In this document: in pieces, positions 7,302 through 46,646 of the stretch
How the letters are laid out: each line of letters opens with the position of its first letter
Position numbering within the stretch: the stretch's first letter is position 1
Origin: a virus
Direction: 5' to 3' (one strand)
DNA: 46,646 bases
IMG/VR virus record: IMGVR_UViG_3300017446_000004
Span: 1 to 46,646 of that record
Notes under the pieces: generated by a model
The model's database searches: none
What the model was told of the DNA's origin: nothing
Seen by the model: only the letters and a program-made list of their open reading frames with translations
Position numbers and translations under genes: made by a program

Positions 7302-7359
7302 GGGGAACCTCGTTGCGTTTGTGGTGCAATCCGTATCGCACCAGGGAATTAAAGAAGCG

Positions 7360-7629
7360 TTACCAAGGCGTACCCGGATAGACCCGATCCTTGTAATATT
7401 CGCGACCGTAGCGCTGTTGCCAGTACGCGGCGCGGATCAGCGCTTTCTTGCGTTCGTAATACGCGGCGGCACGCTCGACCGGACCCCAATCGTTATTGAG
7501 CGCCCTCTCCGGCCGCGTGAACATGTGGCAAATCTTGGCGGCTGCGGTACGGCAAAGCCGATCCTCGATCTTGAGCATGTCAACGCTGTTGAGGTTACGA
7601 ACTGCGCGCTTCTGTTGGACGAGGGCCAT
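7360..7629 (-). CDS. 89-aa hypothetical protein, first gene of the minus-strand cassette
   Basis: SD aggag precedes the internal ATG (MALVQQKRAV...) of track ORF 7360..7713. Confidence 0.65.
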   Translation of the reverse strand: MALVQQKRAVRNLNSVDMLKIEDRLCRTAAAKICHMFTRPERALNNDWGPVERAAAYYERKKALIRAAYWQQRYGREYYKDRVYPGTPW

Positions 7630-21542: not shown

Positions 21543-21552
21543 GGGTTATTGA

Positions 21553-24500: not shown

Positions 24501-25224
24501 GACCGATCCGGGCTCGCGTATTTCGCTCAACACCTCGGGCGTTGCGACGGGAACGGCAATTGGCGGAACATCAAATTACACGATGCTTTATCGTGTTTTC
24601 ACCGCCCCGGCGAACACCGCGTCGGCAACGGTTCGCGTCTATTCCGAAGGCAAGACATCGGGGACGATGGTGTGGCGCAAAATCAAGCTCGCGTTTAGCG
24701 CCTATCCGAGCCCGTGGGATGACACCGCTTCAATGTCGGCCCGCTACGGCGATGACACGCTCGCGGACGCTCTGCGCCCCGAGGAAATCGGCGGGAACCG
24801 AACCGAAGCGCGCACCGCATCGGCGATCGCGGGGCAAGGCACCTTTGCCACGCTCAGCAACGTCAGCCGCGGAAATTACGCCAGCTATTTCAACCTCAAT
24901 GCCTTCAGTCTCAATTACAACATTACGCGCAGCGACGGCGTAAGCGTTGTGACGGAGTCGCTCGTCGTAACAACCTTAGGCATCGCGTCGGCAATCTCTG
25001 GTCAAGGTGGACTTGCCACGCGAAACGCGGTCGATAGCTCAACGATGACCCCAAATTCCGCGTCTGACATGGTGATTATGAGCAATACCAACACCTATAC
25101 AGGAACCGGAGCCCCTGGCACGGGAAGCCCGGTTGGCGGGACGGGCGGCACGGTCAGCACGGGCGGATCTGGCGGCGCAGGCGGCGGCGTCGGCAACACC
25201 CGGCAGACTTATGCGACACCATGA
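21553..25224 (+). CDS. Tail tip / host-specificity fibre protein (gpJ-like N-terminus, fibre repeats, two carbohydrate-binding-module-like domains, Gly-rich tail)
   Basis: 1223 aa, immediately after the tape measure. A recurring fibre motif (E/A)xGANxTExRTAAAIxGQGxFAT appears at least 5 times. Two paralogous segments begin NLVYDGGL... and NLVPDGGFRFGGQGW..., and end FTAPANTxxAxVRVY...IKV/L. Confidence 0.8.
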   Translation: MAFVVLLQAQPRLPSSGALTTVRVAGGGSRAYDQLGFTDWRAGIATRPRFTTAIDFDKGGPTGGAIPQTTGIRIAPSDKAYFSALSNVVWPGARVSIATGDDEGLAISYPLLLQGTVAASVTSGAAITLTIADLSADLNKLAVPNTFAGTGGLEGVDAATGRVKRRTFGVVFNVEGRVLDNANNVYEFGDPNFGVSSFDMLKDKGQAGPMTVLAWQGSALATLNALKAATVASGGGVVAPSISCAKWWTVPAGPLTADMTYNPGSGTQPAQLAATFAAQFSTDMTFANIAEAAGWINYASGVHIDDANETAASVLDRLLLPVFIVWVLRADGGLVFRRVSFDNPIATLRAETVNREVVFPALKTRKLGFQRNYRIHSESEISATLLAAKDIAYADGTPIETLKPAEAGANVTEARTAAAISGQGTFATISSAAYGSQYLTGFGALSPLSNLTFGSSFLLEQAGGVSATLAAFKTIQGIAASITGQGGFATINSAAYGSSFLTGFGQLSPLNNLFFGGAYLLEQSGGSPATLAAFKTIQGIAASITGQGAFATQNSAGYGSALLTGFGQLSPLNSLAFGSPYLLEQSGGASATLAQFKTSLGSAGGFLGQTDWATFTVPTARLTREDANLVYDGGLTLRAARWSLGSGWNWVLGAAGDGPYLQRGTGGQSISYSDFFAFAAGSGYLQSEMFASGMTAGTFAMDLEFYNGATLLTGGSTGATSAANGTGWSERGSTFTAPANTTRARVRVYTASDAQNTNAAIRRIKVSSASTRTKYSDEATVGAAYDDGTYMNMLKPEEAGGNRTEARIASAISGQTDWATYTGLTTTVVAGRTQRLQGDGYIESATIYKTGAGFLSAFYPAEGGANKTETRTAAAITGQSAFATYTGVPPGALIGGPTNLVPDGGFRFGGQGWSASAIGFGLNGTDSTGYAICNATGTNVSSSPQFPATAGAQYCLQAEMSYAAGGGNQCADVVFLNAQGQPLTDPGSRISLNTSGVATGTAIGGTSNYTMLYRVFTAPANTASATVRVYSEGKTSGTMVWRKIKLAFSAYPSPWDDTASMSARYGDDTLADALRPEEIGGNRTEARTASAIAGQGTFATLSNVSRGNYASYFNLNAFSLNYNITRSDGVSVVTESLVVTTLGIASAISGQGGLATRNAVDSSTMTPNSASDMVIMSNTNTYTGTGAPGTGSPVGGTGGTVSTGGSGGAGGGVGNTRQTYATP
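22810..23367 (+). repeat. Three in-frame tandem copies of a 186-nt (62-aa) unit inside the fibre gene
   Basis: The atc of I(S/T)GQG lies at 22810, 22996 and 23182, an exact 186-nt period. Units read ISGQGTFATISSAAYGS(Q/S)(Y/F)LTGFG(A/Q)LSPL(S/N)NL.FG...LLEQ(A/S)GG..ATLAAFKTIQGIAAS. Confidence 0.9.
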
Positions 25225-26368: not shown

Positions 26369-27121
26369 ATGCAATCCCTTCTGATCATGGCCCCTATGCC
26401 GGTTGCGGCGGTGGTTTCGCAGACGATCGCGGGCATGTCGCGCGCGCTGTCTCCCGATCCAAAAGAGGCGTTCATCTGCCCGGCCAATACGGGCGTTGGC
26501 ATCATTCTGGACATGGGCGTCGCTGTAACGGTCGATACCGCGTTCGTGGGCTATCATACCGCGATCGGCACTCAGCAATTTAGCATGTCGGCTTGCGATT
26601 CCGCAGGCTCGAACGCCTTGGCCGTGGTGTCGGGAACATCGCTCGCACCGCTTGGCTATGGCCCGCCAAACCACGGATTTCGCAAGGGCACGGCGCGGAC
26701 CTCGCGCTATTTCCGATTTGACTTTAGCTCGCTCAACGCGGCCGCGTTTTCGGTCGGCGTCATCGCCCTGGGCAAGGCGTGGCAATCGCAGTGGGGGCAG
26801 GAAATGGGCGCAGGCCGACAGGTGATCGACACCGGGTCAGCCGAGCGCCTTTTCGGCGGCGGGTTCGGCATTGACGAAGGCGCGCGCTCGGACGCGTACC
26901 AATGGACCTTCGGCGACCTGCAAGCCGCCGAGATCCGTTCGCTCTATGCGATCGTGTCCGACCGCGGCACGACGAGAACGGTTTTGGTGATCGAGGACCC
27001 CGAAATCACGGACGGCCTAAACGAGCGCATTCATTGGGGCTTGTTCCAAAAGCTTGATTTTTATGAGAGAGTCGACCCAAGCAATTGGAAATGGTCGTTA
27101 CAGGTGGCTGATTGGGCATGA
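26369..27121 (+). CDS. 250-aa hypothetical protein, possibly virion-associated
   Basis: Long clean ORF between the fibre and the lysis genes. No motif I can name. Confidence 0.7.
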   Translation: MQSLLIMAPMPVAAVVSQTIAGMSRALSPDPKEAFICPANTGVGIILDMGVAVTVDTAFVGYHTAIGTQQFSMSACDSAGSNALAVVSGTSLAPLGYGPPNHGFRKGTARTSRYFRFDFSSLNAAAFSVGVIALGKAWQSQWGQEMGAGRQVIDTGSAERLFGGGFGIDEGARSDAYQWTFGDLQAAEIRSLYAIVSDRGTTRTVLVIEDPEITDGLNERIHWGLFQKLDFYERVDPSNWKWSLQVADWA

Positions 27122-27636
27122 CGCAAATTCTATGGGCAACCGAATACCTGCGGCCTTGGCTGACAACGGCATTTAGCGCGGGAACTTTCACGGTCGCTTT
27201 GAGCGGATACCGCATCTGGCGGAAAGGCAAAACCGACGACCTCAAAGTCGCGAGTGACACCCTCAAGATCGAGGCCGACGTTGCCGACCGCCTTAGCGCG
27301 CACTACGCGACCGAATTGGCATCGCTGCGCGAGCAGATCATCACCTCGGGAAACGCCCACGCCGATCGACAAGAGCGCGCAGATCGGCGTTACACTGCCA
27401 GTATGCACGCGGCTGATGAGCGCGAGCGCGAATGCCAAGCCCAGGTTTCGACGTTGCGAGACGAGGTGCGCAAGCTTTCCGAAGAGGTGTTCGGCCTGCG
27501 CCGACAGCTAAGCCAAAATTCGCGGTCCGCGATCATCCTGGCGGGGCAGGTTCCGACCGACGACATTGCCGCCGCCGCCGAGCGTGCAGCAATGGCGCTT
27601 GATGAGGTAGAATCGCGGGCAAATCCGACCGGATGA
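27118..27636 (+). CDS. N-terminal transmembrane + coiled-coil protein (i-spanin-like architecture)
   Basis: ATGA overlap with the upstream gene. TM LRPWLTTAFSAGTFTVALSGYRIW, then a heptad-like region (LASLREQI...VSTLRDEVRKLSEEVFGLRRQL). Confidence 0.6.
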   Translation: MTQILWATEYLRPWLTTAFSAGTFTVALSGYRIWRKGKTDDLKVASDTLKIEADVADRLSAHYATELASLREQIITSGNAHADRQERADRRYTASMHAADERERECQAQVSTLRDEVRKLSEEVFGLRRQLSQNSRSAIILAGQVPTDDIAAAAERAAMALDEVESRANPTG

Positions 27637-27689: not shown

Positions 27690-28031
27690 ATGTCCACCCC
27701 CGACACAGAACCAACGCCGATCGTTTTTGACGACAGCATGACGACCGCGCAGATCCGGCAATTCCTTTCCGCAACGGCGTTTGTCGTTACCTCGATTCCC
27801 GTGTTCGCCGCCCTGTTCAGCAGGCGCGACATTGTGGGGATTGTCGATCTGCTCAAGAGCGAGCCCGCGCTCCAAGCTATCGGCGTTCTCAGCGCCTTCG
27901 CACTTCTGGTCTATCGTCAATGGGCAACCCGCCGCCGCGTCGCCAAGGGCACGGTGATCGCTGCCGCGTCGCCGGTCGCCGTGCTCAAGAGCGAGGTCGC
28001 GGGCTCGCCTACGCCGAGTGCCGAATCGTGA
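27690..28031 (+). CDS. Holin candidate (two transmembrane helices)
   Basis: 113 aa. Helices FLSATAFVVTSIPVFAALFS and AIGVLSAFALLVYRQW. GTGA coupling to the endolysin. Confidence 0.6.
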   Translation: MSTPDTEPTPIVFDDSMTTAQIRQFLSATAFVVTSIPVFAALFSRRDIVGIVDLLKSEPALQAIGVLSAFALLVYRQWATRRRVAKGTVIAAASPVAVLKSEVAGSPTPSAES

Positions 28032-28567
28032 CGGTCGATGACGTGCTCGATGACGTGCTCGCTAAGGAAGGCGGATACGTCAACGACCCGTTGGACGCGG
28101 GCGGCGAGACAAACCACGGCATCACGATCGCGACGGCGCGCGCCAACGGGTACAAGGGGCCAATGCGCGACATGCCGCAGTCGGTTGCCCGCGACATCCT
28201 GTTCCGCCGCTATGTCGTCGCGCCCGGCTTCGACAAGGTTGCCGTGATATCCGCAAAGATCGCCGCCGAGTTGGTGGATACGGGCGTCAACATGGGGCCC
28301 GATACCGCGGGCAAGATCCTGCAGCGCTGCCTTAACTCGCTCAACAACAACGGCAGGGATTTCGCCGTGCTCGACGTTGACGGCGATGTCGGCAAGGCCA
28401 GCCGGGCGGCGCTCAAGGTGTTTCTGGCGCGCCGCGGCGACCTGGGCGAGGCGCGCCTCCTTGTCCTGCTCAACGCGTTGCAGGGCGAGCGCTATGTCTC
28501 ACTGACCGAGACGCGCGCCGCGAACAAAGCCTTTATGTTCGGATGGCTCGCGCGGATCATGCCGTAA
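28028..28567 (+). CDS. Endolysin, glycoside hydrolase family 108 N-acetylmuramidase with a C-terminal peptidoglycan-binding domain
   Basis: LAKEGGYVNDPLDAGGETNHGIT is the GH108 signature. The C-terminal LDVDGDVGKASRAAL...FMFGWLARI resembles the associated PG-binding domain. GTG start at 28028 inside track ORF 27920..28567. Confidence 0.85.
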   Translation: MTVDDVLDDVLAKEGGYVNDPLDAGGETNHGITIATARANGYKGPMRDMPQSVARDILFRRYVVAPGFDKVAVISAKIAAELVDTGVNMGPDTAGKILQRCLNSLNNNGRDFAVLDVDGDVGKASRAALKVFLARRGDLGEARLLVLLNALQGERYVSLTETRAANKAFMFGWLARIMP

Positions 28568-28646: not shown

Positions 28647-29090
28647 ATGCGAATATTTCACGGAATGGGGCTGGCGCTAGTCGCCGCGTGCTCCCTCTCA
28701 CTCGCCGCCTGCGAAATGGGCGCGACGCGGCCCGCCACAGGCGTTCCCGTGCCAATCGGGCAGGTTGCCACCACCGCCGACGCGCTCGGCGTCCCTGCCC
28801 CGGCTGCGGCGGCAAATTCCACCGTTTTGGACGAGGCTCTCGCCCTCAAGGTGGAAGCCGCATACAAAGCATCCCGATCTGCGATGGAACTGGCGGTCGA
28901 CTCTGGCCGGCTGCGCGGGGCCAATGCCACAACGGCCGCGGCGATCGACAACCGGATTTATGCGGGGGTGCAGGCCACCCGCGCGGCGTATCGCGCCGGC
29001 AATGCGGATCGGTACACGACCGCCGCAGCGGAGGCGCTCAACGCGGTCGGCGACTTGCTGATCGCAGTCGGTAAGGGGGCGGGCAAATGA
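28647..29090 (+). CDS. Lipoprotein (o-spanin or exclusion-type function possible)
   Basis: SD aagga. Lipobox LSLAA/C in MRIFHGMGLALVAACSLSLAACEM. The mature part is Ala-rich and helical. Confidence 0.7.
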   Translation: MRIFHGMGLALVAACSLSLAACEMGATRPATGVPVPIGQVATTADALGVPAPAAAANSTVLDEALALKVEAAYKASRSAMELAVDSGRLRGANATTAAAIDNRIYAGVQATRAAYRAGNADRYTTAAAEALNAVGDLLIAVGKGAGK

Positions 29091-29457: not shown

Positions 29458-29730
29458 CTAGACCAGAAACTTGCCAACGACCGCGGAGCGGAACGTCTCG
29501 AACCGTTGCTCGTCGCGGCGCTTCCTGGCGTTTCGTTCCGTCTCAGGTTCCGCGCCGAGATCCGCGAGCGCGGCGTCGATCACCTCGCGGAACTCGGCAA
29601 GGCGGGCCCCCTTTAGGGGCCCACTGTTCCAATATAGACCGCGCAACCGCCAGACCGCCCAATTCCGTTGACGGGCCGCGGTTTGCTTGCCTGATGGCGG
29701 TCGGAATTTACGCAGCGGGTCGCGTGCCAT
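29458..29730 (-). CDS. 90-aa hypothetical protein
   Basis: The ATG at 29730 overlaps the ERF stop by 1 nt (TGATG). In frame with track ORF 29458..29919. Confidence 0.6.
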   Translation of the reverse strand: MARDPLRKFRPPSGKQTAARQRNWAVWRLRGLYWNSGPLKGARLAEFREVIDAALADLGAEPETERNARKRRDEQRFETFRSAVVGKFLV

Positions 29731-30722
29731 CACTCGCCCCCGTCGTCGGCTGGCATCAACCGCGCAACCGCATTCGAGCCCGCCGCGATCGCTCGAGCGT
29801 ACAGGTCGGGGTGTTCGCCCTGCAAACGCCCCATTGCCTTCGCGCCCTTGGTCTGAATACGGACGAGCGCGTCGCGATCGGGGGCCGCGGCGCAGTCCAG
29901 TTCGTATTGCTCGGTCCACCCTTCGGCCGTGTTCACGTCGGGCCCGGTCTTCGCGGGAGGATCTGCGCGATCGGGTTCGGCTTTGCTCGCGCCGGGCAGC
30001 GCGAGCACGCCGCTAAGGCGCGCGTGCGTTCCCGAACCGATCACGACCGCCTTATCCTTGATGTTGAGACGGCTAAACCATGCCGCATATTCGCCGCGAT
30101 CCGCCGCCGCTTGGGCGTCCACGATCAGCCCCTCTTGCCGGTCGTTCATGTGGTAATTTTCGCGGCCGATCGCGCCGTCGTTATCCTCGCCATCCTCGAT
30201 AATGTTGAGCATCCCTTTCATCGTGTAGCGCTTGAGGTAGCTGGATGCTGACCCGAGGGATTGGATAGGCGAGCGCCCTGGGCCCGTGTCTGCCGGGCCC
30301 TTCATCACCGCGCCTTCCTCGATGAACCCGTTTTCGTGCCGCAAGATCGGTTGCACCGTCACAAGCTGCCCCTCACTGCCGAGCCGAAAGTCGATCGACA
30401 GACGGAATCGAGTGAGCACCGGGAGCGCCGCACGGTGCATATCCTCGAACTTGGCGTAACGGTGCTTATCGGATTTCCCGCCCTTGAATATCACCGGCAT
30501 GGCGCGCAACGCTGCGGCCTTGTCGCGGTTAAATTCGGCCTGTCGTTCGCGGTCTTCCATTTGGTTCATAAGGTTGAACATCGCCGCGGCTTTCGTCGGG
30601 TCAACGTCGGGATTGGTCAGCGCCTCGCGCAGCATCATCAAGCGCTGATCGCCGGGGATCGAGGTCGAGCTATGCGACACGGCGCGGGTTTCGGCGGTTG
30701 CCAGTTCGCGGGAATCGGTCAT
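29730..30722 (-). CDS. erf: ERF-family single-strand annealing protein
   Basis: AALPVLTRFRLSIDF...LVTVQPILRHENGF...QSLGSASSYLKRYTMKGMLNIIEDGEDNDG matches the ERF core. SD aagga precedes the ATG at 30722. Confidence 0.8.
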   Translation of the reverse strand: MTDSRELATAETRAVSHSSTSIPGDQRLMMLREALTNPDVDPTKAAAMFNLMNQMEDRERQAEFNRDKAAALRAMPVIFKGGKSDKHRYAKFEDMHRAALPVLTRFRLSIDFRLGSEGQLVTVQPILRHENGFIEEGAVMKGPADTGPGRSPIQSLGSASSYLKRYTMKGMLNIIEDGEDNDGAIGRENYHMNDRQEGLIVDAQAAADRGEYAAWFSRLNIKDKAVVIGSGTHARLSGVLALPGASKAEPDRADPPAKTGPDVNTAEGWTEQYELDCAAAPDRDALVRIQTKGAKAMGRLQGEHPDLYARAIAAGSNAVARLMPADDGGE

Positions 30723-30742
30723 CGGTATTTCCTTCGGTTGGA

Positions 30743-32044
30743 TCAATGGCCCTCAAGCCAGTGTGTCGAGAAATCGAGCGCGGAGGTCGAGCGCTTCGCT
30801 TCGATCGGGAACCACGGCTCGCCGGGTTCATAGGCTTGGCTATGCAGCACAAACGACCGCTTTGCCCGGTCAATATCCATGATTGCCCGGTTGTATAGAT
30901 CGGTCGGCCGGCGCGTCACGCGCGCCTGCCGCGCCGCGCCCTGATCGTCGCCGATTGCGTTGTTCATCGCCGTCCCCTCGGGGACATGGAAGAAATCGAA
31001 CTCATAGGCGAGCAGATTGGGCACGCCGTCTTTTTCCTTGAACACGTACCAACACGCCAGTTCGTCGGGCCGAATCTGGATAGCCGCGACAATCGCGCGC
31101 TCACGCTCGGTTGCCTCGCCGATGATCTGCAACCCCCCAAGCCGGATTGCCTCGGCGGCATCGCGATAGGTGACGGCTTGCACGTGATAGCGATTATAAC
31201 GGATCGTGTCGGCGATCGCCTGCTCAAGCTCTTTGCCGTTCGGATTGGCAAAAGTCTTGAGGTCATCCCACATGTCGGCGCGGAGATAATCCATACGCGC
31301 TTTCATCCGCAAGCCGTGCTTGTCGGTCCAGAAAATCGACACCTCGGCAGCGCCTCCCGTCAGCAAAGCGGCAATCTCGTCGTTGCTGCGGATCTGTTCC
31401 ATGTCGGTCGCGATCTGGTCGAAATACTTGCCGGGCAGGGCTATGCGATCGCCGCGCGCGGCTTCCCATTCCTGCAACGCGATTTGCCAGATCGGGCCCT
31501 CATATCCGGCATCAACAAGGCGCTGCGCCTGCTCTCCGACCGAGCCGGTCTTTTTCTCGCCGAGCGCTTCCAACGCCTTACCCATATCGGTCCCCGTGAA
31601 AAGCGTTGCCTTGGGGAACTCGGACTTTTCGAGCGCGCGCACGTATTGCTGATCAAATAGCTCGGGCTCGAGCCGGGCCGTATGGTATGCCTTGCCGAGG
31701 ACCTGGGCCGCGGTCGCTTCCTCGTCCAGTTCTGCGCGGTCGGGATCGAGCCACGACCGACGCCAGAACGTCGCCGCGCTCACGCAAAGCTTTTGCAAGC
31801 CCGAGGCGCTCAACCGCGGCACGGCATGATAGATTTCGGACGGCAGGCCGAAATAGATGCCATCCTCAATCGCATCAACGCGGCGTTGCATTTCCGCGCG
31901 GCGCGCCGCTTGGTCGTCATCCGCCTGGGCGGGCGCGGCGACCTTGGCGGCGGGCTTTGCCGCAGCCGGCCGCTCCACTTTTGCAGCGGGAGCGGCGGGC
32001 GGCGGCACGACGGCATCAAATGCCAGATCGAACGGGTTGGACAT
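30743..32044 (-). CDS. PD-(D/E)xK exonuclease, RecE-like / DUF3799 type
   Basis: SASGLQKL...GKAYHTARLE...AEVSIFW...KARMDYL...WDDLKTF...RYHVQAVTY gives the E, D, DxK and Q..Y elements. The start is taken at MSNPFD (32044). Confidence 0.75.
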   Translation of the reverse strand: MSNPFDLAFDAVVPPPAAPAAKVERPAAAKPAAKVAAPAQADDDQAARRAEMQRRVDAIEDGIYFGLPSEIYHAVPRLSASGLQKLCVSAATFWRRSWLDPDRAELDEEATAAQVLGKAYHTARLEPELFDQQYVRALEKSEFPKATLFTGTDMGKALEALGEKKTGSVGEQAQRLVDAGYEGPIWQIALQEWEAARGDRIALPGKYFDQIATDMEQIRSNDEIAALLTGGAAEVSIFWTDKHGLRMKARMDYLRADMWDDLKTFANPNGKELEQAIADTIRYNRYHVQAVTYRDAAEAIRLGGLQIIGEATERERAIVAAIQIRPDELACWYVFKEKDGVPNLLAYEFDFFHVPEGTAMNNAIGDDQGAARQARVTRRPTDLYNRAIMDIDRAKRSFVLHSQAYEPGEPWFPIEAKRSTSALDFSTHWLEGH

Positions 32045-32049
32045 GGCGA

Positions 32050-32307
32050 TCACTTCCCCCCGAACAGGTCGTCGGCCGTTGTTGTCGGCGTCTCGAGCGG
32101 CGCAAGCCCGAGAATCGGCTTGGTCGGATAGTCGGGTTTGCGATCCGACACACTGACCATAAAGACGCGCTTCCACGCGTCATCCGCGCCGCGCGCATCG
32201 GCGACCTTGACCTGATCGCCCGGCGCAACGGGGGCGCCGTCGTTGTGATAGGTATAGGTCCGCGTATCCTGCACGCGGAATTTGCAAGCGACGTATTGGG
32301 TAGGCAT
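32050..32307 (-). CDS. 85-aa hypothetical protein
   Basis: Clean ORF with high GC3, packed between the neighbouring operon genes. Confidence 0.65.
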   Translation of the reverse strand: MPTQYVACKFRVQDTRTYTYHNDGAPVAPGDQVKVADARGADDAWKRVFMVSVSDRKPDYPTKPILGLAPLETPTTTADDLFGGK

Positions 32308-36255: not shown

Positions 36256-36405
36256 ATGTCTATGTATGACCCCGGCAACCCCCAACACCTTGACCACCTC
36301 CACCGCCACAAGGCGGCATGGACGCCCGAGCGCGAGGCCGCGCTACAGGCGCAGTTTAAGGCCGAAGGCAAAGGCCGCTACGCGAAGGCCGCACCATGCG
36401 CGTAG
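36256..36405 (+). CDS. 49-aa hypothetical protein (MSMYDPGNPQHLDHLHRHKAAWTPEREAALQAQF...)
   Basis: SD from repeat copy 2. Its end overlaps the rusA start. Confidence 0.55.
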   Translation: MSMYDPGNPQHLDHLHRHKAAWTPEREAALQAQFKAEGKGRYAKAAPCA

Positions 36406-36866
36406 CGTTCACGATACCGGGCCCGCCGCAGGGCAAGCGCCGCCCACGAACCCGCGTGGTCGGTCGCATTGCCACCATCTACAGCGATCCGGCCGACAAA
36501 CTGCGCGAGATCGAGATCCGCGCCGCCGTGCGCTTGGCCATGAACGGGCAACAGGCGATCGCCGGCGCGGTGCGCGTCACGATCGACGCCGTGTTCGAGG
36601 TGACGCCAAGTTGGCCGAAAAAACGCAAGGAGGCCGCGCTCGCCGCCCTCTATCACACCAGCAAGCCCGATGCCGACAACATCGCAAAAAGCATTCTCGA
36701 CGGGCTCAACCCCGATCCCAAGGCGAAAGAGGAATGGGCGCGCGTCCCCTTCTGTCTCAACGACGACGGACAGGTCGCCGAGCAGATGATCCGCAAGCGC
36801 TACGGCTCGCCCGCGCGAACCGAGGTGATCGTCCAGGCGATAGCCCCGCCCGAGCCTGCGGGATGA
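36396..36866 (+). CDS. rusA: RusA-family Holliday junction resolvase
   Basis: FTIPGPPQGKRRPR...HTSKPDADNIAKSILDGLN...NDDGQV are the RusA hallmarks. Confidence 0.85.
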   Translation: MRVAFTIPGPPQGKRRPRTRVVGRIATIYSDPADKLREIEIRAAVRLAMNGQQAIAGAVRVTIDAVFEVTPSWPKKRKEAALAALYHTSKPDADNIAKSILDGLNPDPKAKEEWARVPFCLNDDGQVAEQMIRKRYGSPARTEVIVQAIAPPEPAG

Positions 36867-38706: not shown

Positions 38707-39068
38707 ACCTGATTGAGGACAAGATCGGCGAGGAACACGCCCGCGCGCTCTCTGCTCTGGTCGGGGGCACACAGATCACCGTGCCCGACAATCTCACCGC
38801 ATCCGTGTTCAACTCGGGACGCCTGCGCGAGCGGATTGGCGATGGATTGTTCGCCTTGCTGGTCTTCCACTTCGGCGGCACTCGCCTCTACGTGCCGCAG
38901 CTTGCCCAGGATCGCCGCACTGGACAGGAGCGGGTTGATCCCAAGGCGGTTGAGCGTCTGACCCGGCGCGGGTGGTCTGCGGCGCGCATTGCCCGCAAGC
39001 TCGGCTGTTCGACCCGGACGGTTTACAAGCGTCGCGCGCAAACCTCTTGCAATGCTGGCGCTACCTGA
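38703..39068 (+). CDS. Mor/C-family-like transcriptional activator
   Basis: FHFGGTRLYVPQL plus the C-terminal HTH GWSAARIARKLGCSTRTVYKRR parallel Mu Mor (HLGGGQVYIPRG ... VYKAIRR). Confidence 0.55.
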   Translation: MNLIEDKIGEEHARALSALVGGTQITVPDNLTASVFNSGRLRERIGDGLFALLVFHFGGTRLYVPQLAQDRRTGQERVDPKAVERLTRRGWSAARIARKLGCSTRTVYKRRAQTSCNAGAT

Positions 39069-39105
39069 TATTGCGGGCTCGGACCTCAACAGGAGAGTTG
39101 GACCC

Positions 39106-40044
39106 GTGAACGACAAAGCAACAGAAACCATCAAGGCCGCTGCGGCGAACATTGGCCGGGCCTTCCAAGCCCTCGGCAAGGATTTTGACGCCGAGCGGAT
39201 CGAAGCCGGCGACATTCGCAAGGCGCAGTTTTCACCCGCTTATCACGCCGCCCCCTCGATAATGCTGACCGATGAGGTCATCGGGTTTGAGTGCGACCAC
39301 TGCCACCGCTTCAACGAGGTGGATAAGCTTGACGACGCCTTCCTTGTGGCGCTGGAAGCTCGATTCGGGAAAAGCGGCACCATTCCGCCCGAAACCGCGC
39401 CGGATGCGCCTGACGGCCCGGAAATCCCGAGTCGTTCGGCGATTAGCGACGAAGACCGCGCCTCGATCCGCAAGATCAGCGACAAGTTGTTCGGTTCTGG
39501 CCCTTTTACCGCGTTCGAGCAGATGGTTGCGGATGGCGTGCGAGAATGCGAGCGCATTCGCGAACTGACGGCCGACCGAGACGCCGAGCGCGACCGCGCC
39601 AAGGGCCTCGCGACCTTGCTTGAGCGCGCGCAGGATCGATACGACGAAAGCCGCGAGTTGCTGGCGCAGGCCGGGATCAAGCTGGTCGAGCGCGAAAAGG
39701 AGATCGACGGGCTGCTCGCGCAGATCGCGACCGCCGACGACCACGGCGAACAGTTCCACGATCGCATTACCTCCTTGACCGCCAAGGTCGCCGAGCGCGA
39801 TGCGATCATCAAGGCGCGCGATGGCACGATCGAGGGAATGCACGGCGTGGTTATGGATCGTGACCGCGATCTCGCGAGCCTACAAGATCGGCTTGCCGCG
39901 CGCGACGCACAGATCGAGCGGATGCATTCCCACGCGCTTGATCGAAGCAACGACATTGGGCACCTCACAAGCCGCATTGAAGCGCGCGATCGCCTGCTCG
40001 ACCGCATCCTCGAACTGGTCATTGACGCGAAGGGCGGCAAGTGA
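39106..40044 (+). CDS. 312-aa coiled-coil protein (alternative start ATG 39052)
   Basis: SD aggaga lies 9 nt before the GTG at 39106. Repeated RD-rich heptads: AERDAIIKARDGTIEGM, RDRDLASLQDRLAARDAQIERM, IEARDRLLDRI. Confidence 0.65.
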   Translation: MNDKATETIKAAAANIGRAFQALGKDFDAERIEAGDIRKAQFSPAYHAAPSIMLTDEVIGFECDHCHRFNEVDKLDDAFLVALEARFGKSGTIPPETAPDAPDGPEIPSRSAISDEDRASIRKISDKLFGSGPFTAFEQMVADGVRECERIRELTADRDAERDRAKGLATLLERAQDRYDESRELLAQAGIKLVEREKEIDGLLAQIATADDHGEQFHDRITSLTAKVAERDAIIKARDGTIEGMHGVVMDRDRDLASLQDRLAARDAQIERMHSHALDRSNDIGHLTSRIEARDRLLDRILELVIDAKGGK

Positions 40045-40397
40045 GCGCGCCGGGCACAACGCCGGGCCCTTGGGAAGTGCAAACCCCGATGGGCGATAAC
40101 GCGCCGTGGATCGTACGCGCCGGCCTACAGTCTTACGAATGGGAGCCGATCGCCACGCTCGGCGACGAGTTCGTCACCAACACCGCGCAAAAGCGGATCA
40201 TGGCCGACGCCAACCTGATGGGCGCGAGCCAAGCGCTTTACGACGCGCTGGCGGCAGAGTTGGCCGACCTAATGATCGATCGCAGTTGGGCGGAAACGTC
40301 CGATCTCGACCGCTTGATACAACGTTGCGAGCGCATAGAACGCGCGCTCGCCCAGGCCTCGCCCAGGCCAAAGGGGAAACCGTATGAGCAACGATAG
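40041..40397 (+). CDS. 118-aa hypothetical protein
   Basis: GTGA coupling, high GC3. Confidence 0.65.
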   Translation: MSAPGTTPGPWEVQTPMGDNAPWIVRAGLQSYEWEPIATLGDEFVTNTAQKRIMADANLMGASQALYDALAAELADLMIDRSWAETSDLDRLIQRCERIERALAQASPRPKGKPYEQR

Positions 40398-40728
40398 CAC
40401 CACCCGCTGCGGACGCTGCGGCACGATCGACGGTTGCGTTTGCGTTGATAGCGGCGCGTGGCAGGACGAGGCGTTGCGACGGACGAGGGTCAAGCCCGAA
40501 AACCAGCCCGCCTTCCCCGAGGTCCCCGCGGACTGCAACGGCTATGAGGGCCGCGCCGGCATGACGCTGCGCGACCACTTCGCCGGGAAGGCGCTCCCGC
40601 AGACCATTGCCGCGGTGTTTGAAATCCACCCCAACGGCTCAGGAACAAAGGATTTTGCCGAGACGTGCGCGACGCTGGCCTACCAGATGGCCGACGCGAT
40701 GCTCGCCGCGCGCGAGGTTAAGCCGTGA
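40384..40728 (+). CDS. 114-aa Cys-rich hypothetical protein
   Basis: N-terminal CGRCGTIDGCVCV. It overlaps the previous gene's end. Confidence 0.6.
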   Translation: MSNDSTTRCGRCGTIDGCVCVDSGAWQDEALRRTRVKPENQPAFPEVPADCNGYEGRAGMTLRDHFAGKALPQTIAAVFEIHPNGSGTKDFAETCATLAYQMADAMLAAREVKP

Positions 40729-41209: not shown

Positions 41210-41457
41210 GCGAAATGGGCGAAATGTACCGCGACCTCAAGGATTGGCAGAAGGCCCGCCGCCGCATCTGGGGCGAACCCTGCGCCAAGTGCCGCGAGGA
41301 ACAGCCGCGGCGACAGCCGACCATCCTTGAGCCCGGCCGTTTCTGCAAAGTGCATCGGCCGTGGCATCGCGACCCCAGGCCGCACCCGACCGAGGAAGAA
41401 TTTGCCGAGCGCATGGCCGCGAACGGCTGGAACGCCCACAAATCGGAGGAAAGCTAA
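41206..41457 (+). CDS. 83-aa hypothetical protein with a CxxC...CxxH motif
   Basis: ATGA overlap. CAKCREEQ...FCKVH. Confidence 0.6.
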   Translation: MSEMGEMYRDLKDWQKARRRIWGEPCAKCREEQPRRQPTILEPGRFCKVHRPWHRDPRPHPTEEEFAERMAANGWNAHKSEES

Positions 41458-42017
41458 TGCCCATTCACCCCGTCATCGTCATGATCGGAACCGCAACGTT
41501 CTCCTGCTATGCTACGGTCAAGGCCCCGCCGATCTACCACGCCGCGAAAACGTGGATCGCCAAGCCCGCGCCTCGGTCGGGCGATCACGCGAAGCACAAC
41601 CGCCAGCATCACGCCAAGCCCGCCGCGGTCGTTCCGGTCTGCCCTCCATCGGGGATCACGACGCTCAACCGCACGCTGCCCACGGCCGACCCGCTCGCGA
41701 TGATGGATGACGACGTGGAGGAAGCCGACCGACCGTCGCGATCGTATAGCCTTGCCCCGCCCGCGTTCGTCCCGCGCTCGAGCTATGAGATCACCCGGCC
41801 GGATCTGTTCGCGCCATACGTGCCGCAGCCGGTCGCGCCTGGGGTTGGTCTGATAATCCGGCCGACCCCCACGCCGACGACCGAGCCCGAGGCGGGAAAT
41901 CCCGCAACGCCCCTGCCCGAGCCCGAAACGTGGGCGCTGATGCTCGCGGGGTTCGCGCTGGTCGGCGCTGTAGCCCGCCACCGCGCGCAACGCTCTTGCA
42001 CGGTACCCGCAATGTGA
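41457..42017 (+). CDS. Exported protein with a C-terminal PEP-CTERM (PEPxxWA-type) exosortase sorting signal
   Basis: SD ggagga and a TAATG junction. The C-terminus PLPEPETWALMLAGFALVGAVARHRAQR gives a PEP motif, a TM helix and a basic tail. The N-terminus VIVMIGTATFSCYA is hydrophobic. Confidence 0.65.
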   Translation: MPIHPVIVMIGTATFSCYATVKAPPIYHAAKTWIAKPAPRSGDHAKHNRQHHAKPAAVVPVCPPSGITTLNRTLPTADPLAMMDDDVEEADRPSRSYSLAPPAFVPRSSYEITRPDLFAPYVPQPVAPGVGLIIRPTPTPTTEPEAGNPATPLPEPETWALMLAGFALVGAVARHRAQRSCTVPAM

Positions 42018-42053
42018 TACAGCGCGGGGGTGCAACGCAATCAGGAGAGATTG

Positions 42054-42896
42054 ATGAACCGCGATGAACACAAGACCGCCCGCCCGCCGATCGCGCAGTT
42101 TGGCGATGCGATCGAGGTGAAGGGGGAAAGGCCGGGGTGGCTGCCGGATGATGTGTGGGATCAAGTCGAGGCGATCCTGTATTGCGGTGAGGTCCAGCGG
42201 TGCATTCCTGGTGCAACCAACCCCGTTATGTCGGATTGGGAATGGGGCGACATTGAGTCGATCAAGCTCCCCGTCCCGCGCTACGATTTCGTCTATCTCG
42301 CGCTGGAGCGGGGGATGGTGCCGTGGTTTGGCGGGGATGAAGCGCCGGTCGAGGCCAAGCTAGTTGACGTTTTGTATAGAGACGGTCGAGTGGTGACTGG
42401 TTTGTGGGCGCACCGGCTGGATTGGTTCCACTACACGCAGCATTCAACCGATAACGCCATCATCGGCTACCACGCCACCTCGACCGCCCTCCCGCTCGCC
42501 CACCCCGCCGCAGTGAAATGGCGAGAGCGGTGGTATGGATCGGAGCCGCAGAAGGGTTCGGCAATTTTAGATGAGCGAGGCAATCTGATCGCGTATTTCG
42601 GTGGCGACGAGGTTACTCACACGGCCACAACCGCGACCGTTGCCGCACACAATGCAGCGCTCGCCCACCCCGCCGCGCCGCAGGGGGAGGAATGGGCAGC
42701 GGAAGTAGCAGCCAGAATTGTGCGCGATTTCCGGCCGGAAGGGTGGCCAGCGAAAGAGGCTGAGATAGCCCGCTATCTGTTGATGAGCCTCGCAGCCCTC
42801 GCCCCCGCGGCGATTGCTTCCGGACGGGAGGGGGCGTGCCAATGCCACATCAAAGCACCCTGCGGATGGTGCACAGCAGAATGGGAAGAGTCATGA
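42054..42896 (+). CDS. 280-aa hypothetical protein
   Basis: SD aggaga precedes the ATG at 42054. C-terminal CQCH...CGWC. Confidence 0.7.
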   Translation: MNRDEHKTARPPIAQFGDAIEVKGERPGWLPDDVWDQVEAILYCGEVQRCIPGATNPVMSDWEWGDIESIKLPVPRYDFVYLALERGMVPWFGGDEAPVEAKLVDVLYRDGRVVTGLWAHRLDWFHYTQHSTDNAIIGYHATSTALPLAHPAAVKWRERWYGSEPQKGSAILDERGNLIAYFGGDEVTHTATTATVAAHNAALAHPAAPQGEEWAAEVAARIVRDFRPEGWPAKEAEIARYLLMSLAALAPAAIASGREGACQCHIKAPCGWCTAEWEES

Positions 42897-43699
42897 TCAA
42901 CCACGCTAAAGCCGCGCCCTCAAAGGAATGGTGCATCAAGATGGCCGAACTCGAAGGCAACAGCGAAATCGGCGCAGGTTCGCCCGATCACCCTTTGCGG
43001 AACCCCGCCCCCGCCAAAGCCGCGCCGATGCGCGAGGATATGACGCCGGTGACTGACGCCGATCGTAAGGCGCTATCCGATGCGACAGAGTATTATTGGC
43101 AGCATAGTCGCGTCGAAGATACGTCGCAGGCCTCGATCGATCAAATCGTTACCGCGCACGCATTAGCTTGCGAGGGGGCGTCGGCAATCATCGCTCGCCA
43201 CCGCCTCGCCCACACCGCCCGCCCCGACGCCGGGGATGAGGTCGAACGGCTCGATCTCGCGCGGTTCGGCGCATCGGAACGCGCGGGCTACCTATACCCC
43301 GGCGAGGATCAGCAGAAGGAGCGCGCCGCTTTTTGTGAGGGGGCCGCACTCGCCGCCATGCGCGAGGGGGTGGACGCGGCCCGAGCCCGCGCGATCAAGG
43401 ATGCCGCCGCGGCCGTCGTCAATTTCCGCGTTGGCGATCTGCCAGGGAGCGGATGGCTCAAAGATAACGGGGCCTCGCGCGCCGCGCTTGCTCGCCTTGT
43501 CGCCGCGCTCAAGCGGCCTGCCGCCGAGGGGGTGGACCCCGATGCCGCAACCGGATGCGCCGACGATCAGGCGTTTGCGGCGGTCAGTGACGACGCATTG
43601 AGGGAGACGGTCGAGCGATTGAGCCGGCAACTCGACGTTTCCCCCGACAAGATCCGCGATGCGATCGCCAACCTCCGCGCAAAGGGCCTGATCGAATGA
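42893..43699 (+). CDS. 268-aa hypothetical protein
   Basis: ATGA coupling, high GC3. Confidence 0.7.
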   Translation: MINHAKAAPSKEWCIKMAELEGNSEIGAGSPDHPLRNPAPAKAAPMREDMTPVTDADRKALSDATEYYWQHSRVEDTSQASIDQIVTAHALACEGASAIIARHRLAHTARPDAGDEVERLDLARFGASERAGYLYPGEDQQKERAAFCEGAALAAMREGVDAARARAIKDAAAAVVNFRVGDLPGSGWLKDNGASRAALARLVAALKRPAAEGVDPDAATGCADDQAFAAVSDDALRETVERLSRQLDVSPDKIRDAIANLRAKGLIE

Positions 43700-43875
43700 G
43701 CCCGGCGCAGCAAGCCCGCCACATGTTCGCCGATGCCGTCCAGGCGCAGGGCCCCGCGTGGCGCAACGCCGCCGACTCGATCCGAGCCGGGAATTATGGC
43801 AATGCGTGGACGGTCGCCGCGATCGGCGCGATCGAGAAAGCACTCAGGACAGGCGCAGACGATGACGTTGAGTAA
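43696..43875 (+). CDS. 59-aa hypothetical protein
   Basis: ATGA coupling. Translated by hand (MSPAQQARHMFADAVQAQGPAWRN...). Confidence 0.5.
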   Translation: MSPAQQARHMFADAVQAQGPAWRNAADSIRAGNYGNAWTVAAIGAIEKALRTGADDDVE

Positions 43876-44485
43876 GGCGGCAGTGCAGAACCGAGGCGGG
43901 CGCGCGAACAACGTGCGTAAGCGCCGCCCTCGCGACGCGGATGGATGGCTCGCCACCGAAAAGGCGTTCGTGCTGCACTATCTCGGCGTCGCGAACCGCA
44001 ACGCGACCGAGGCGGCGGTCCTCGCCGGGTATGGCAGAGGCAACCGCGATAGCGCCAAAAAGCAGGGATGCGAGATCCTGCAGCGGCCGCACGTCATCGA
44101 ATACATTGATAAAATCACTCAGGAGCGGAACCAAAAGCTTCGCGTGACGGCCGACGACGTGCTCCGCGAGTTGATGATCCTCAAGGTGGACGCCGAGACG
44201 GAAAAGCGGACGCTCGGCGCGCTCAAGATGCGCCGCGAGATCCTCAAAGATATCGGCGATCATGTCGCGGTCGGCGCGTTCCGGCGCAACGTCGGATTGT
44301 CGGCACCGAACGGCGGGCCTATCGAGGTGGCCGACCTTGCGATGATGGCGGAACTTACCGACGATGAACTCGACCAGCTTGAGAAAGCCCGCGCAATCCT
44401 TGACCGGATCTCGCCCGCCAGCGCCGCGGGTTCCGACCGCGGCAGCGATTCGAGCGGAACGGGAGCGACGCCGCAAGGCGAATGA
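43862..44485 (+). CDS. Terminase small subunit
   Basis: EKAFVLHYLGVANRNATEAAVLAGYGRGNRDSAKKQGCEILQRPHVIEYI matches the small terminase HTH region. It lies directly upstream of the large subunit. Confidence 0.8.
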   Translation: MTLSKAAVQNRGGRANNVRKRRPRDADGWLATEKAFVLHYLGVANRNATEAAVLAGYGRGNRDSAKKQGCEILQRPHVIEYIDKITQERNQKLRVTADDVLRELMILKVDAETEKRTLGALKMRREILKDIGDHVAVGAFRRNVGLSAPNGGPIEVADLAMMAELTDDELDQLEKARAILDRISPASAAGSDRGSDSSGTGATPQGE

Positions 44486-46073
44486 GCAGGCGCAGCTTGC
44501 GCGCGACGCCGAGGTCATCCGCGCGCGCTGTTCCACGCTGGTCGGGTTCGTTCAAGAGGCGTGGCCGATCCTCGAGCCCGAAACGCCGTTCGTGCTCAAC
44601 TGGCATATCGTCGCCATCTGCCAGCACCTCGAGGCCGTCACGCGCGGGGATATCACTCGCCTGCTTGTGAACGTGCCGCCCGGCTCGTCCAAATCGATGA
44701 TCGTCTCGGTTCTCTGGCCCGCCTGGGAATGGGGGCCGTGCGGTCGGCCGTCGCTGCGCTACCTGACCACCTCGTTCAACGATGCTGCCGTGTCGCGCGA
44801 CACGATCAAATCCCGCGATTTGATGCTCTCCGATTGGTACAAGGCCCTTTGGCCCGAGGTCGTGCTCACGCGCACGGGCGAAAAGCGCCTCGGTAACACC
44901 GCAACCGGCGCGCGCGTTGCGGTCGCGTTCGGATCGTTGACCGGGCAGCGCGGCGACCGCTTCATTGTTGACGATCCGCATTCGACCGAGGGGGCCGAAA
45001 GCGAGGCCGACCGAATGCGCGCGTCCAGGCGGTTTATCGAGGGCGGCACCAACCGCTTGAACGATCAGACACGATCGGCGCTGATCGTCATCATGCAGCG
45101 CTTGCACGCCGACGATATCAGCGGGCAGATCCTCAAGCGCAAAATGCCTTACGTGCATCTGTTGATCCCGATGGAGTTCGAGGTCGAGCGGCGCACCACC
45201 ACCTCAATCGGGTGGACCGATCCGCGCACCCGCGACGGCGAGCTATTGGACCCCAAGCGATTCCCGCGCGCGGCCGTGACCGAACTGCAGGGCATGGGGT
45301 CGTTTGCCTATGCCGGGCAGTATCAGCAGCGCCCGACCGCGCGCGAAGGCGGCATGTTCAAGCGGCATTGGTTCGCCGGCAAGATCATCGACGCGAGCAC
45401 CGCCCCAAAAACCGGGTTGACGTGGTGCAGGGCGTGGGATTTCGCCGCGACTCGGGAGAAGCCCGGCAAGTCGCCGGATTGGTCGGTCGGTCTTCTGATG
45501 GCGCGGCAGGGCCGGGATTATTACGTGTTCGGTATCAAGCGGATGCGCGAAACAGCCGGCGTGGTGCAGCGCACGGTTCGCGACATGGCCGAAATCGACC
45601 CCGTGGGCACCACCATTCGTATCCCGCAAGATCCGTCGCAGGCTGGCGTTGCCCAGGTCGAAAGCTATGTCGCGGCCATGTCGGGCTTTCCGCTCAAGCC
45701 GCAATTGACATCGGGCCGCGGCGACAAGGCGGCGCGCGCGCAGCCGGTCGGCATTCAAGCCGAGTTCGGGCATATCTACCTCGTCAACAGCGGCCCGCCT
45801 GACGAATACATAGACGATTGGATTGAGACGTTCCTAGACGAGGTTTGCACGTTCCCGGCCGGGACGCACGACGACCAAGTTGACGCCTTCGCCGACGCCT
45901 TCAACGAGTTGGCGCTCGGCGAGGATACGCCCTTTTACAGCGCCAGCGCGGGCCGACGCGAAAGCCTCGCCGTTGTGGAACGTGACACGGGCTCGGACTT
46001 TGGCGATAATGGCGACAACGACGGGGGCGATGTTGGCTCGCTGTTCTCACGCTCGCAAGGACTCGCTTTCTGA
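44364..46073 (+). CDS. Terminase large subunit (5' end uncertain: ATG 44364 overlaps terS; TTG near 44397 is an alternative)
   Basis: Walker A VNVPPGSSKSM and Walker B DRFIVDDP. The C-terminal nuclease-type THDDQVDAFADAF is present. The stop overlaps the portal start (ATGA-type junction at 46071-46075). Confidence 0.9.
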   Translation: MNSTSLRKPAQSLTGSRPPAPRVPTAAAIRAERERRRKANEQAQLARDAEVIRARCSTLVGFVQEAWPILEPETPFVLNWHIVAICQHLEAVTRGDITRLLVNVPPGSSKSMIVSVLWPAWEWGPCGRPSLRYLTTSFNDAAVSRDTIKSRDLMLSDWYKALWPEVVLTRTGEKRLGNTATGARVAVAFGSLTGQRGDRFIVDDPHSTEGAESEADRMRASRRFIEGGTNRLNDQTRSALIVIMQRLHADDISGQILKRKMPYVHLLIPMEFEVERRTTTSIGWTDPRTRDGELLDPKRFPRAAVTELQGMGSFAYAGQYQQRPTAREGGMFKRHWFAGKIIDASTAPKTGLTWCRAWDFAATREKPGKSPDWSVGLLMARQGRDYYVFGIKRMRETAGVVQRTVRDMAEIDPVGTTIRIPQDPSQAGVAQVESYVAAMSGFPLKPQLTSGRGDKAARAQPVGIQAEFGHIYLVNSGPPDEYIDDWIETFLDEVCTFPAGTHDDQVDAFADAFNELALGEDTPFYSASAGRRESLAVVERDTGSDFGDNGDNDGGDVGSLFSRSQGLAF

Positions 46074-46646
46074 TGGCAATTTCCCCGATCATCCGCCGCC
46101 CCCTTGAAGCCCTCGGCTTCCTCGCGCCCGCGGAGGTCGGCGGCATGTCCCCCGCCCCGATCCGGCAAGCCTCGCCGCAGGAAACCGACGCCGCGCCCGC
46201 GCTCGACCGCATGATCAGCCGATCGGCGGATTCGTCGTGGTTTCCAAGCGCGTGGCTCGACGCGATCGAGACGAACGACGACCCGATCCTGTCGCGCGAC
46301 GGGTCGGGGCTCAAGCTGTTCGACGCGCTCCTGTCCGACGAGACCGCAATGTCCACGCTGCAACAGCGCCGCCTTGCGATCACGTCGAAGGAATGGGAGG
46401 TCGTGCCCGGCGATGAGGACGACCCGCGGGCGGTAAAAGCGGCTGACGACTTTCGCGCGATGGTGGACGCGCTCGGGTTCGATCGTGTTACGGGATTGCT
46501 GCACTATGGCATTTGGTACGGTTACGCGGTCGCCGAGGGCCTGTTCACGATCAAGGAGCACGACGGCCGGCTGATCGTGTGGCTGGATGACGTGGTGATC
46601 CCCGATCGCGGATGGTTCGGGTTCACCAAGCAAGGCGAGTTGCGCT
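46073..46646 (+). CDS. Portal protein N-terminal part (runs off the window end and continues at base 124 through the overlap)
   Basis: The ATG at 46073 shares its A with the terminase TGA. Translation MAISPIIRRPLEALGF...LKLFDALLSDETAMSTLQQRRLAITSKEWEVVPG is DUF935-like. It is in phase with 3..1727. Confidence 0.9.
   Translation, partial: MAISPIIRRPLEALGFLAPAEVGGMSPAPIRQASPQETDAAPALDRMISRSADSSWFPSAWLDAIETNDDPILSRDGSGLKLFDALLSDETAMSTLQQRRLAITSKEWEVVPGDEDDPRAVKAADDFRAMVDALGFDRVTGLLHYGIWYGYAVAEGLFTIKEHDGRLIVWLDDVVIPDRGWFGFTKQGELR
46524..46646. repeat. Terminal overlap copy 2, identical to 1-123
   Basis: Read directly. Confidence 0.95.

Follow-up and report, generated by a model that had tools for sequence, protein, structure and literature searches.

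A probable phage-encoded exosortase substrate: a small protein with a PEPxxWA-type PEP-CTERM tail in a phage that most likely infects Sphingomonadales

Exosortase sorting is widespread in environmental Gram-negative bacteria; it has been the subject of little experimental work, and the attachment and destination of its substrates are largely conjecture. Here, we analyse a viral stretch of 46,646 nucleotides (nt; IMG/VR record IMGVR_UViG_3300017446_000004, hereafter the window), in which an open reading frame (ORF) at positions 41457..42017 encodes a 186-residue protein with the PEP-CTERM tail of an exosortase substrate. We find that this ORF is a genuine gene of a complete tailed phage, most likely of the Sphingomonadales, and that its product is probably a small envelope protein that uses the PEP-CTERM/exosortase pathway of the host. 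The genuine tail, and the restriction of the family to phages and prophages of Sphingomonas, make it very probable that the phage routes one of its own proteins through the surface-sorting pathway of the cell that it infects. As classified by its tail and its carriers, the family joins a known kind of sorting-signal protein as a new member confined to phages; on present evidence, it represents a routine domain, detectable by hidden Markov models (HMMs), in an unusual carrier.

An earlier note, made from the letters of the window, had described the C-terminus of the 186-residue product as a Pro-Glu-Pro motif followed by Trp-Ala, a hydrophobic helix and an arginine-rich cluster, and the sequence matches that description exactly (...ATPLPEPETWALMLAGFALVGAVARHRAQRSCTVPAM). 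Trp159 starts the hydrophobic helix, and seven further residues separate the basic cluster from the stop after residue 186. The HMM search that the note had proposed gave scores above the curated cut-offs for all three models, namely NF035944 (PEPxxWA-CTERM; 42.6 bits, E = 3.9e-11, cut-off 35), PF07589 (26.1 bits, cut-off 20.7) and TIGR02595 (16.6 bits, cut-off 16). Judged by these scores, the tail is a true PEP-CTERM signal of the PEPxxWA type, far beyond chance. The features that we tested are taken from the definition of PEP-CTERM proteins (Haft et al. 2006; PMC1569441). Like the substrates described there, the window protein combines a C-terminal PEP motif, transmembrane helix and basic cluster with an N-terminal hydrophobic segment, has no transmembrane segment in between and shows no homology outside the tail. 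Unlike the usual substrates, it is encoded by a phage, is the sole one in its genome, has a very small, mostly disordered and proline-rich body and carries an atypical N-terminal signal with an invariant cysteine.

The remainder of the protein also agrees with what the note had read from the letters, that is, a hydrophobic N-terminus and a proline-rich, probably extended middle. The Kyte–Doolittle mean in 15-residue windows is 1.2–1.6 for residues 1–21, and hydropathy stays below 1.0 across residues 22–156, leaving no transmembrane segment between signal and tail. Proline accounts for 16% of the protein. AlphaFold2, run with the family alignment, gave a mean predicted local distance difference test score (pLDDT) of 54 and placed helices at residues 4–18, 25–34 and 156–181 only; the last of these is the sole confident one (pLDDT 82–95), and residues 57–135 score below 50. 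It is the proline content, together with the few predicted helices and the low pLDDT of residues 57–135, that supports an extended middle. Two cysteines are invariant in the family: Cys17 (41505–41507), at the end of the N-terminal hydrophobic segment, and Cys62 (41640–41642), within VVPVCPPSGITTL. A six-frame scan by regular expression and hydropathy found no second PEP-CTERM-like tail in the window, and so a single tail in this phage genome. A six-frame hydropathy scan for a phage-borne exosortase found no convincing polytopic membrane ORF in the window; its two matches with several transmembrane segments were one ORF antisense to a real gene and one of 205 residues with three segments.

The gene itself is marked by several independent features. 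The start at 41457 is backed both by a ribosome-binding site and by the aligned N-termini of homologues, and the GC content at third codon positions (GC3), together with the GC pattern over codon positions, is coding-like. Together with the homologues in other phages and the TAATG coupling to the ORF upstream, these features identify the ORF as a real gene. Read from the same TAATG overlap, the upstream 83-residue ORF is translationally coupled to the PEP-CTERM gene and appears to lie in the same operon. After the replication and RusA genes come small, closely spaced + strand genes in a row, the last of which is the PEP-CTERM gene, two genes upstream of TerS. No promoter-like site, and no terminator-like site on the + strand, was found between 38.5 and 44.5 kilobases (kb), and the gene for this reason appears to be a member of an operon and not an autonomous moron.

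The note had also called the protein phage-encoded, and the gene content of the window bears this out: it includes TerS, TerL, portal, major head protein, Erf, exonuclease, RusA and endolysin genes in a circular assembly. Nucleotides 1–123 are identical to nucleotides 46524–46646, and because of this exact 123-nt terminal overlap we read the assembly as circular. Its ends and its gene content together mark the window as the complete genome, about 46.5 kb long, of a tailed phage. The source contig measures 46,664 base pairs, that is, the window plus 18 nt; should these extend the repeat, the overlap would come to 141 nt, as an assembler with k = 141 would leave.

An exhaustive search of 1.84 billion representative sequences returned around ten full-length relatives of 157–188 residues. 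The ORF has about 12 homologues in all; they share 25–45% identity with the + strand product and come from at least ten independent contigs. It was this search that found the family; a word-indexed search gave one relative, and a profile of the N-terminal half gave two. Outside the family, the N-terminal 140 residues had no match in the exhaustive search. A tblastn search of the protein against 50,697 GenBank phages gave no match at E ≤ 1, and an IMG/VR search built on a two-sequence alignment, for which the patterns chosen were weak, found no loci. Wherever the context of a relative could be read, the surrounding DNA was that of a phage, a prophage or an integrative element. As far as homology and context define it, the window protein is the founding member of a small, unannotated family whose only carriers are phages, prophages and integrative elements of Sphingomonas.

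Members of this family share one architecture. A hydrophobic N-terminus ends in the invariant Cys17 and gives way to a basic, histidine-rich stretch of variable length; the core consists of VPxCPPSGIxT[IL], which holds the invariant Cys62, and then PLxxMDxD; and a proline- or glycine-rich linker of variable length leads to the PEPxTW tail. Conservation is highest in this tail, at 49% mean pairwise identity compared with 20–35% elsewhere. Pro154, Pro156, Trp159, Gly165, Gly170 and Arg174 each recur in 90% or more of the 11 members in the alignment, and all but one of the 11 match NF035944 at E ≤ 0.01, the exception being a frameshifted copy. Going by this conservation, the sorting signal is under purifying selection.

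Three observations indicate a host in the Sphingomonadales. All three matches to a five-sequence family alignment among 185,579 species-representative genomes are in Sphingomonas; Sphingomonas sp. PsM26 carries a homologue; and the nearest relatives of the window TerL, at 45% identity, come from two phages of Erythrobacter, a genus of the Sphingomonadales. The host is most likely Sphingomonas or a close relative within that order. The note had taken the PEPxxWA variant itself as a clue to such a host. The independent evidence does indicate Sphingomonadales, but the tail by itself is no reliable marker of host or taxon, because the sole named organism among ten tail-only matches looked up was Roseateles, a betaproteobacterium. 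In the very long tail-matching proteins P0004 (2036 residues) and P0007/P0090 (about 1344 residues, Roseateles sp.), the tail matched internally (for example, at 987–1024) in four to six stretches; these may be internal PEP-CTERM-like repeats or fused gene calls. A preprint that searched 902 genomes of Sphingomonadales reports that genes for exosortase and for PEP-CTERM proteins are widespread among them, and that PEP-CTERM-positive genomes nearly always hold an exosortase (bioRxiv 10.64898/2025.12.21.693542). An 'exosortase-associated' amidotransferase is also present in a Sphingomonas exopolysaccharide (EPS) locus.

A route for the protein can be proposed from these features. The gene would share the transcript of the early/middle rightward operon, immediately before the terminase genes, and the N-terminal hydrophobic segment would drive Sec export. 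The C-terminal helix and the RHRAQR cluster would then anchor the protein in the inner membrane so that the PEP motif faces the periplasm, where the host exosortase, presumably of the XrtA type that has been reported to be widespread in Sphingomonadales, would cleave at PEP. The product, of some 130–150 residues, would be passed to the outer envelope or the EPS layer, and would consist of a short conserved 'head' (the basic stretch, CPPSGITTL and the acidic MDDDVE) on a long proline-rich stalk. The most likely purpose would be a change in the surface of the cell, whether infected or lysogenised: by covering a receptor or polysaccharide, for instance, the product could keep other phages out. 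Such a role would have a counterpart in the envelope proteins that temperate phages encode near their immunity and integration genes. We favour surface remodelling or exclusion because relatives of the gene lie in early or lysogeny regions and phages commonly put small exported proteins there.

Several observations weigh against this proposal. The N-terminal segment is atypical as an export signal, having no lysine or arginine before the hydrophobic helix and no clear AxA site, and the invariance of Cys17 does not fit an ordinary signal peptidase I signal; this cysteine could belong to a non-canonical lipobox or be the disulfide partner of Cys62. Profile searches of Pfam (outside the tail), PHROGs, PADLOC and the PDB gave no match for the protein, and its mature part resembles no protein of known function in these collections. 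Neither an integrase nor a CI repressor was found in the window by tblastn with two integrases and one CI repressor from related loci, and a role in lysogenic conversion is for that reason argued from the relatives and not from the window genome. The gene also has no promoter of its own, unlike classic morons.

If the protein were instead anchored in the membrane independently of exosortase, the tail would be no more than an anchor from the end of a captured host gene, and the site of action would be the inner membrane or the periplasm, for instance in Sie-type exclusion directed against DNA injection. Exosortase processing of this protein is a prediction, TIGR02595 is barely above its cut-off, and a single such tail in the phage compares with a system defined by many substrates per genome, all of which suit a plain anchor. 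The window protein clearly passes NF035944, however, and ten of the 11 family members match that model at E ≤ 0.01, the six residues of the tail named above are kept despite an overall identity of 25–45%, and the likely hosts have the exosortase pathway, which makes an exosortase-independent anchor unlikely.

A further reading gives the protein the role of a decoy or inhibitor of the host exosortase, which it would occupy or jam instead of being displayed, lowering the export of host PEP-CTERM matrix proteins and loosening the EPS or floc matrix, for example so as to ease the escape of virions or prevent their trapping. That the tail is the most conserved part of an otherwise mostly disordered and fast-evolving protein would suit such a role, as would the position of the gene in a lytic-cycle operon just before the terminase genes of a phage without detected lysogeny genes; in Zoogloea, floc formation is reported to need PEP-CTERM proteins and EPS jointly. 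Against inhibition, the CPPSGIxT / MDxD core is conserved and both cysteines are invariant, which points to a separate function for the mature part, and several relatives lie in the lysogeny regions of prophages. We know of no precedent for a decoy of exosortase and consider this role quite unlikely.

The invariant cysteine raises the question of a lysis protein resembling a unimolecular spanin, in which Cys17 would carry a lipid anchor in the outer membrane, the C-terminal helix would sit in the inner membrane, the proline-rich part would span the periplasm and the likeness to PEP-CTERM would be incidental. The cysteine, at position 17–18, ends a short hydrophobic segment, is preceded in most members by a small residue (Thr, Ala or Ser) that toggles between Thr and Ala among very close relatives, and the C-terminal transmembrane helix is followed by basic residues. 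The periplasmic part of Rz1-type o-spanins is, like the middle of the window protein, rich in proline. The residues before the cysteine (T-F-S in the window protein; G-L-T, G-I-T, G-I-V, G-V-A, G-F-A or A-F-A in relatives) nevertheless include no Leu, Val or Ile at −3 and have Thr or Val at −1 in about half of the members, so that in roughly half of the family the triplet (such as G-L-T, G-I-V or T-F-S) departs from the standard L-[AS]-[GA]-C lipobox. The lysis cassette (27.1–29.1 kb), which already has spanin-like parts, lies 13 kb from the gene (41.5 kb), the relatives adjoin integrase, repressor or recombination (RecT) genes and not lysis genes, and a plain membrane anchor needs neither the nearly invariant Pro154, Pro156 and Trp159 nor a tail that is the best-conserved region. 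Given where the gene lies, how poor the lipobox is and how well the PEP motif is conserved, we reject a spanin role, which is very improbable. Lastly, a chance ORF, or a real gene in the antisense ORF 41454..42164, might be suspected in DNA of 64% GC with long spurious ORFs in most frames, but homologues of the + strand protein on at least ten independent contigs at 25–45% identity refute such an artefact, and with a fitting ribosome-binding site, start/stop coupling and GC3 pattern and an HMM E value of 3.9e-11 it is practically dismissed.

Returning to a phage-made substrate of the host exosortase, known systems offer partial parallels. SasX of the Gram-positive Staphylococcus is a prophage-encoded LPXTG sortase substrate with a demonstrated role in colonisation; on our reading, here too the surface protein comes from a mobile element and depends on a host C-terminal sorting enzyme, but the enzyme is an exosortase and not a sortase, the motif is PEP and not LPXTG, the envelope is of another type and the role of the protein is only hypothesised. 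Cor (phi80/HK022) and Llp (T5) are superinfection-exclusion lipoproteins that take the Lol route. They too are small, phage-encoded, exported proteins on a host sorting route, and the genes of our protein's relatives lie in early or lysogeny regions; they differ in having no sequence similarity to it and in using Lol and not exosortase, and exclusion is here a hypothesis only. T1 gp11, a unimolecular spanin with an N-terminal lipid anchor and a C-terminal transmembrane segment, fuses both membranes at lysis. The window protein resembles it in the N-terminal cysteine after a short hydrophobic segment and in the C-terminal transmembrane anchor, and departs from it in the position of the gene outside the lysis cassette, the non-canonical lipobox and the conserved PEP-x-x-W. 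The flocculation-associated PepA of Zoogloea resiniphila (NF033554; Gao et al. 2018) has a tail of the same kind and is likewise presumed to be delivered to the EPS matrix. We rejected PepA as a homologue, the match to NF033554 being limited to the tail (17 bits compared with a cut-off of 80). A PEP-CTERM domain is also mentioned in passing for HOG10 of the IME1 virus-like elements of Dehalococcoides (bioRxiv 10.64898/2026.09.15.751708), a protein that is alike, by description, in carrying PEP-CTERM on a mobile virus-like element, with another host phylum and another type of element.

The searchable literature describes no characterised phage-encoded exosortase substrate, and the earlier note was aware of none; its impression of rarity, however, was overstated. 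A scan with a single narrow DNA pattern for PEPxTWxxMLxG gave 99 matching stretches on viral contigs of IMG/VR (L014–L112), in which the motif lies at most 45 residues from the stop in 104 of 107 ORFs, belonging to about 45 unrelated protein groups. These ORFs often occur as tandem pairs (L036, L048, L051, L066, L083 and L087). TerL homologues lie within about 1 kb of the tail ORF in four stretches (L065, L047, L025 and L076), an endolysin homologue lies near the ORF in L015, and other loci are near primase/helicase or methyltransferase genes. The present family accounts for only two of the 99 (L050 and L052). From this survey, phage-associated PEP-CTERM cargo looks widespread and unstudied.

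It is a tentative suggestion, and on balance a doubtful one, that tailed phages whose hosts are EPS-producing Gram-negative bacteria make routine use of the host exosortase pathway, such that this family and dozens of unrelated PEP-CTERM proteins encoded beside terminase or replication genes on viral contigs are phage-made substrates that remodel the polysaccharide–protein surface layer of infected or lysogenic cells (for exclusion, receptor masking or loosening of the matrix) and that Cys17 might add a lipid anchor, making the present protein doubly sorted. Should phages in general make substrates for the enzyme, there would be an as yet undescribed route by which phages and prophages edit the EPS or biofilm surface of the host, and such editing, if true, would be relevant to the formation of wastewater flocs and granules and to phage host range. 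The 186-residue protein, with its head, spacer and tail, would in addition make a compact reporter substrate for the exosortase pathway in Sphingomonas.

Table 1 Features of the PEP-CTERM gene, its product and the surrounding phage genome (positions in the window)
Feature	Position	Strand	Remark
PEP-CTERM protein gene, 186 aa	41457..42017	+	ATG at 41457, stop TGA 42015-42017
Ribosome-binding site GGAGG	41445..41449	+	7 nt 5' of ATG; read from sequence
N-terminal hydrophobic segment, residues 1-21, MPIHPVIVMIGTATFSCYATV	41457..41519	+	presumed export signal; hydropathy, AlphaFold2 helix 4-18
Basic His/Lys/Arg-rich segment, residues 24-56	41526..41624	+	length varies across family; 20% mean pairwise identity
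Conserved core, residues 57-90: VVPVCPPSGITTL and PLAMMDDDVEEA	41625..41726	+	35% mean pairwise identity
Pro-rich low-complexity linker, residues 91-153	41727..41915	+	length-variable; Gly-rich in some relatives
Pro-Glu-Pro motif, residues 154-156	41916..41924	+	proposed exosortase recognition/cleavage site; HMM matches span residues 154-176
C-terminal transmembrane helix, residues 159-173, WALMLAGFALVGAVA	41931..41975	+	hydropathy peak 1.88
Basic cluster RHRAQR, residues 174-179	41976..41993	+	predicted cytoplasmic stop-transfer part of sorting signal
Upstream ORF, 83 aa	41206..41457	+	stop TAA overlaps PEP-CTERM ATG (TAATG)
Downstream ORF, 283 aa	42045..42896	+	sub-threshold PHROG match only: phrog_9174 (unknown function), E=8e-4
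TerS (small terminase)	43733-44485		PHROG match
TerL (large terminase)	44364-46073		PHROG match
Portal	46010..end plus 54-1727		crosses window ends; PHROG match
Major head protein	9224-10219		PHROG match
Lysis cassette: 174-aa protein	27112-27636		N-terminal transmembrane segment and coiled coil, i-spanin-like
Lysis cassette: 113-aa holin-like protein	27690-28031		two transmembrane segments
Lysis cassette: endolysin	27920-28567		phrog_315
Lysis cassette: 147-aa protein	28647-29090		canonical lipoprotein signal, LAAC lipobox (…LSLAAC…)
Erf-like annealing protein and exonuclease	29730-32176	minus	PHROG matches
RusA	36396-36866		PHROG match

The neighbours of the PEP-CTERM gene are largely without informative families. 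The upstream 83-residue ORF had no family match in NCBIfam, Pfam or PHROG. NCBIfam and Pfam gave no informative family for the flanking genes, the 351-residue coiled-coil ORF at 38989–40044 having only weak, far sub-threshold matches (SMC and tropomyosin). Among the defence HMMs of PADLOC-DB 2.0, neither the PEP-CTERM protein nor the five nearest neighbour genes tested had a match, save for a weak PbeC match of the coiled-coil ORF (E = 0.0044, 13.4 bits). The downstream 283-residue ORF shares 63% identity with the ORF downstream of the homologue on a 44-kb contig with a P22-type coat protein (L011/L050), and has an N-terminal match at a second relative's locus (L001).

The structural module of that 44-kb contig differs from that of the window phage, and yet the two share the flanking genes g40384, g42045 and g42836. 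The corresponding ORFs, at 40384–40728, 42045–42896 and 42836–43699, stand in the same order around the PEP-CTERM gene on both of these unrelated backbones. Because the flanking genes are shared despite the different structural modules, the PEP-CTERM gene would travel in a small block between unrelated phage backbones, and the comparison suggests that the three ORFs and the PEP-CTERM gene form a mobile gene block.

Other relatives lie among genes of recombination, integration and lysogeny. L001 adjoins an RNase_T-type exonuclease and RecT, and L004 is followed by an HTH_17 gene and a tyrosine integrase. In a prophage of an IMG isolate genome (L052), the order is integrase, PAPS reductase, family member, small genes and a CI-like repressor, and L006 and L013 lie in arrays of small same-strand genes. 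Sphingomonas sp. PsM26 carries two diverged copies on two different mobile elements (JARUXA010000011 and JARUXA010000014), of which one is a prophage with an integrase and the other has a primase-polymerase/D5-type gene. The prophage copy (L010) lies between a DUF5131 gene and radical-SAM, MazG and integrase genes; the second copy (L009), near the primase-polymerase, has been named 'PEP-CTERM sorting domain-containing protein' by NCBI. Truncated copies without a tail occur in Sphingomonas sp. PvP055 (L002; P0049) and S. echinoides (L008), the latter with a transposase-like ORF immediately downstream. In PvP055, two other ORFs of 193 residues with PEP-CTERM tails (2496–3077 and 6955–7536) lie at most 8 kb from the truncated copy. 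The region in L002/L008 may be a decaying prophage or a PEP-CTERM-rich island.

As to the rest of the phage genome, a megablast search of 30–46.6 kb of the window against the 50,697 GenBank phages gave no match, and no tRNA genes were found in the window. The lipoprotein gene of the lysis cassette is a separate gene and is not embedded in that of the coiled-coil protein. Two very large adjacent ORFs of 1290 and 1223 residues occupy 17670–25224 in the tail region; the first had no PHROG match and the second matched phrog_8917 alone (unknown function), and both are probably tail or host-recognition proteins. The portal ORF at 54–1727 matches phrog_113 over residues 2–313 and the 'RNA ligase' phrog_755 over residues 322–462, the latter of which may be a fused extra domain.

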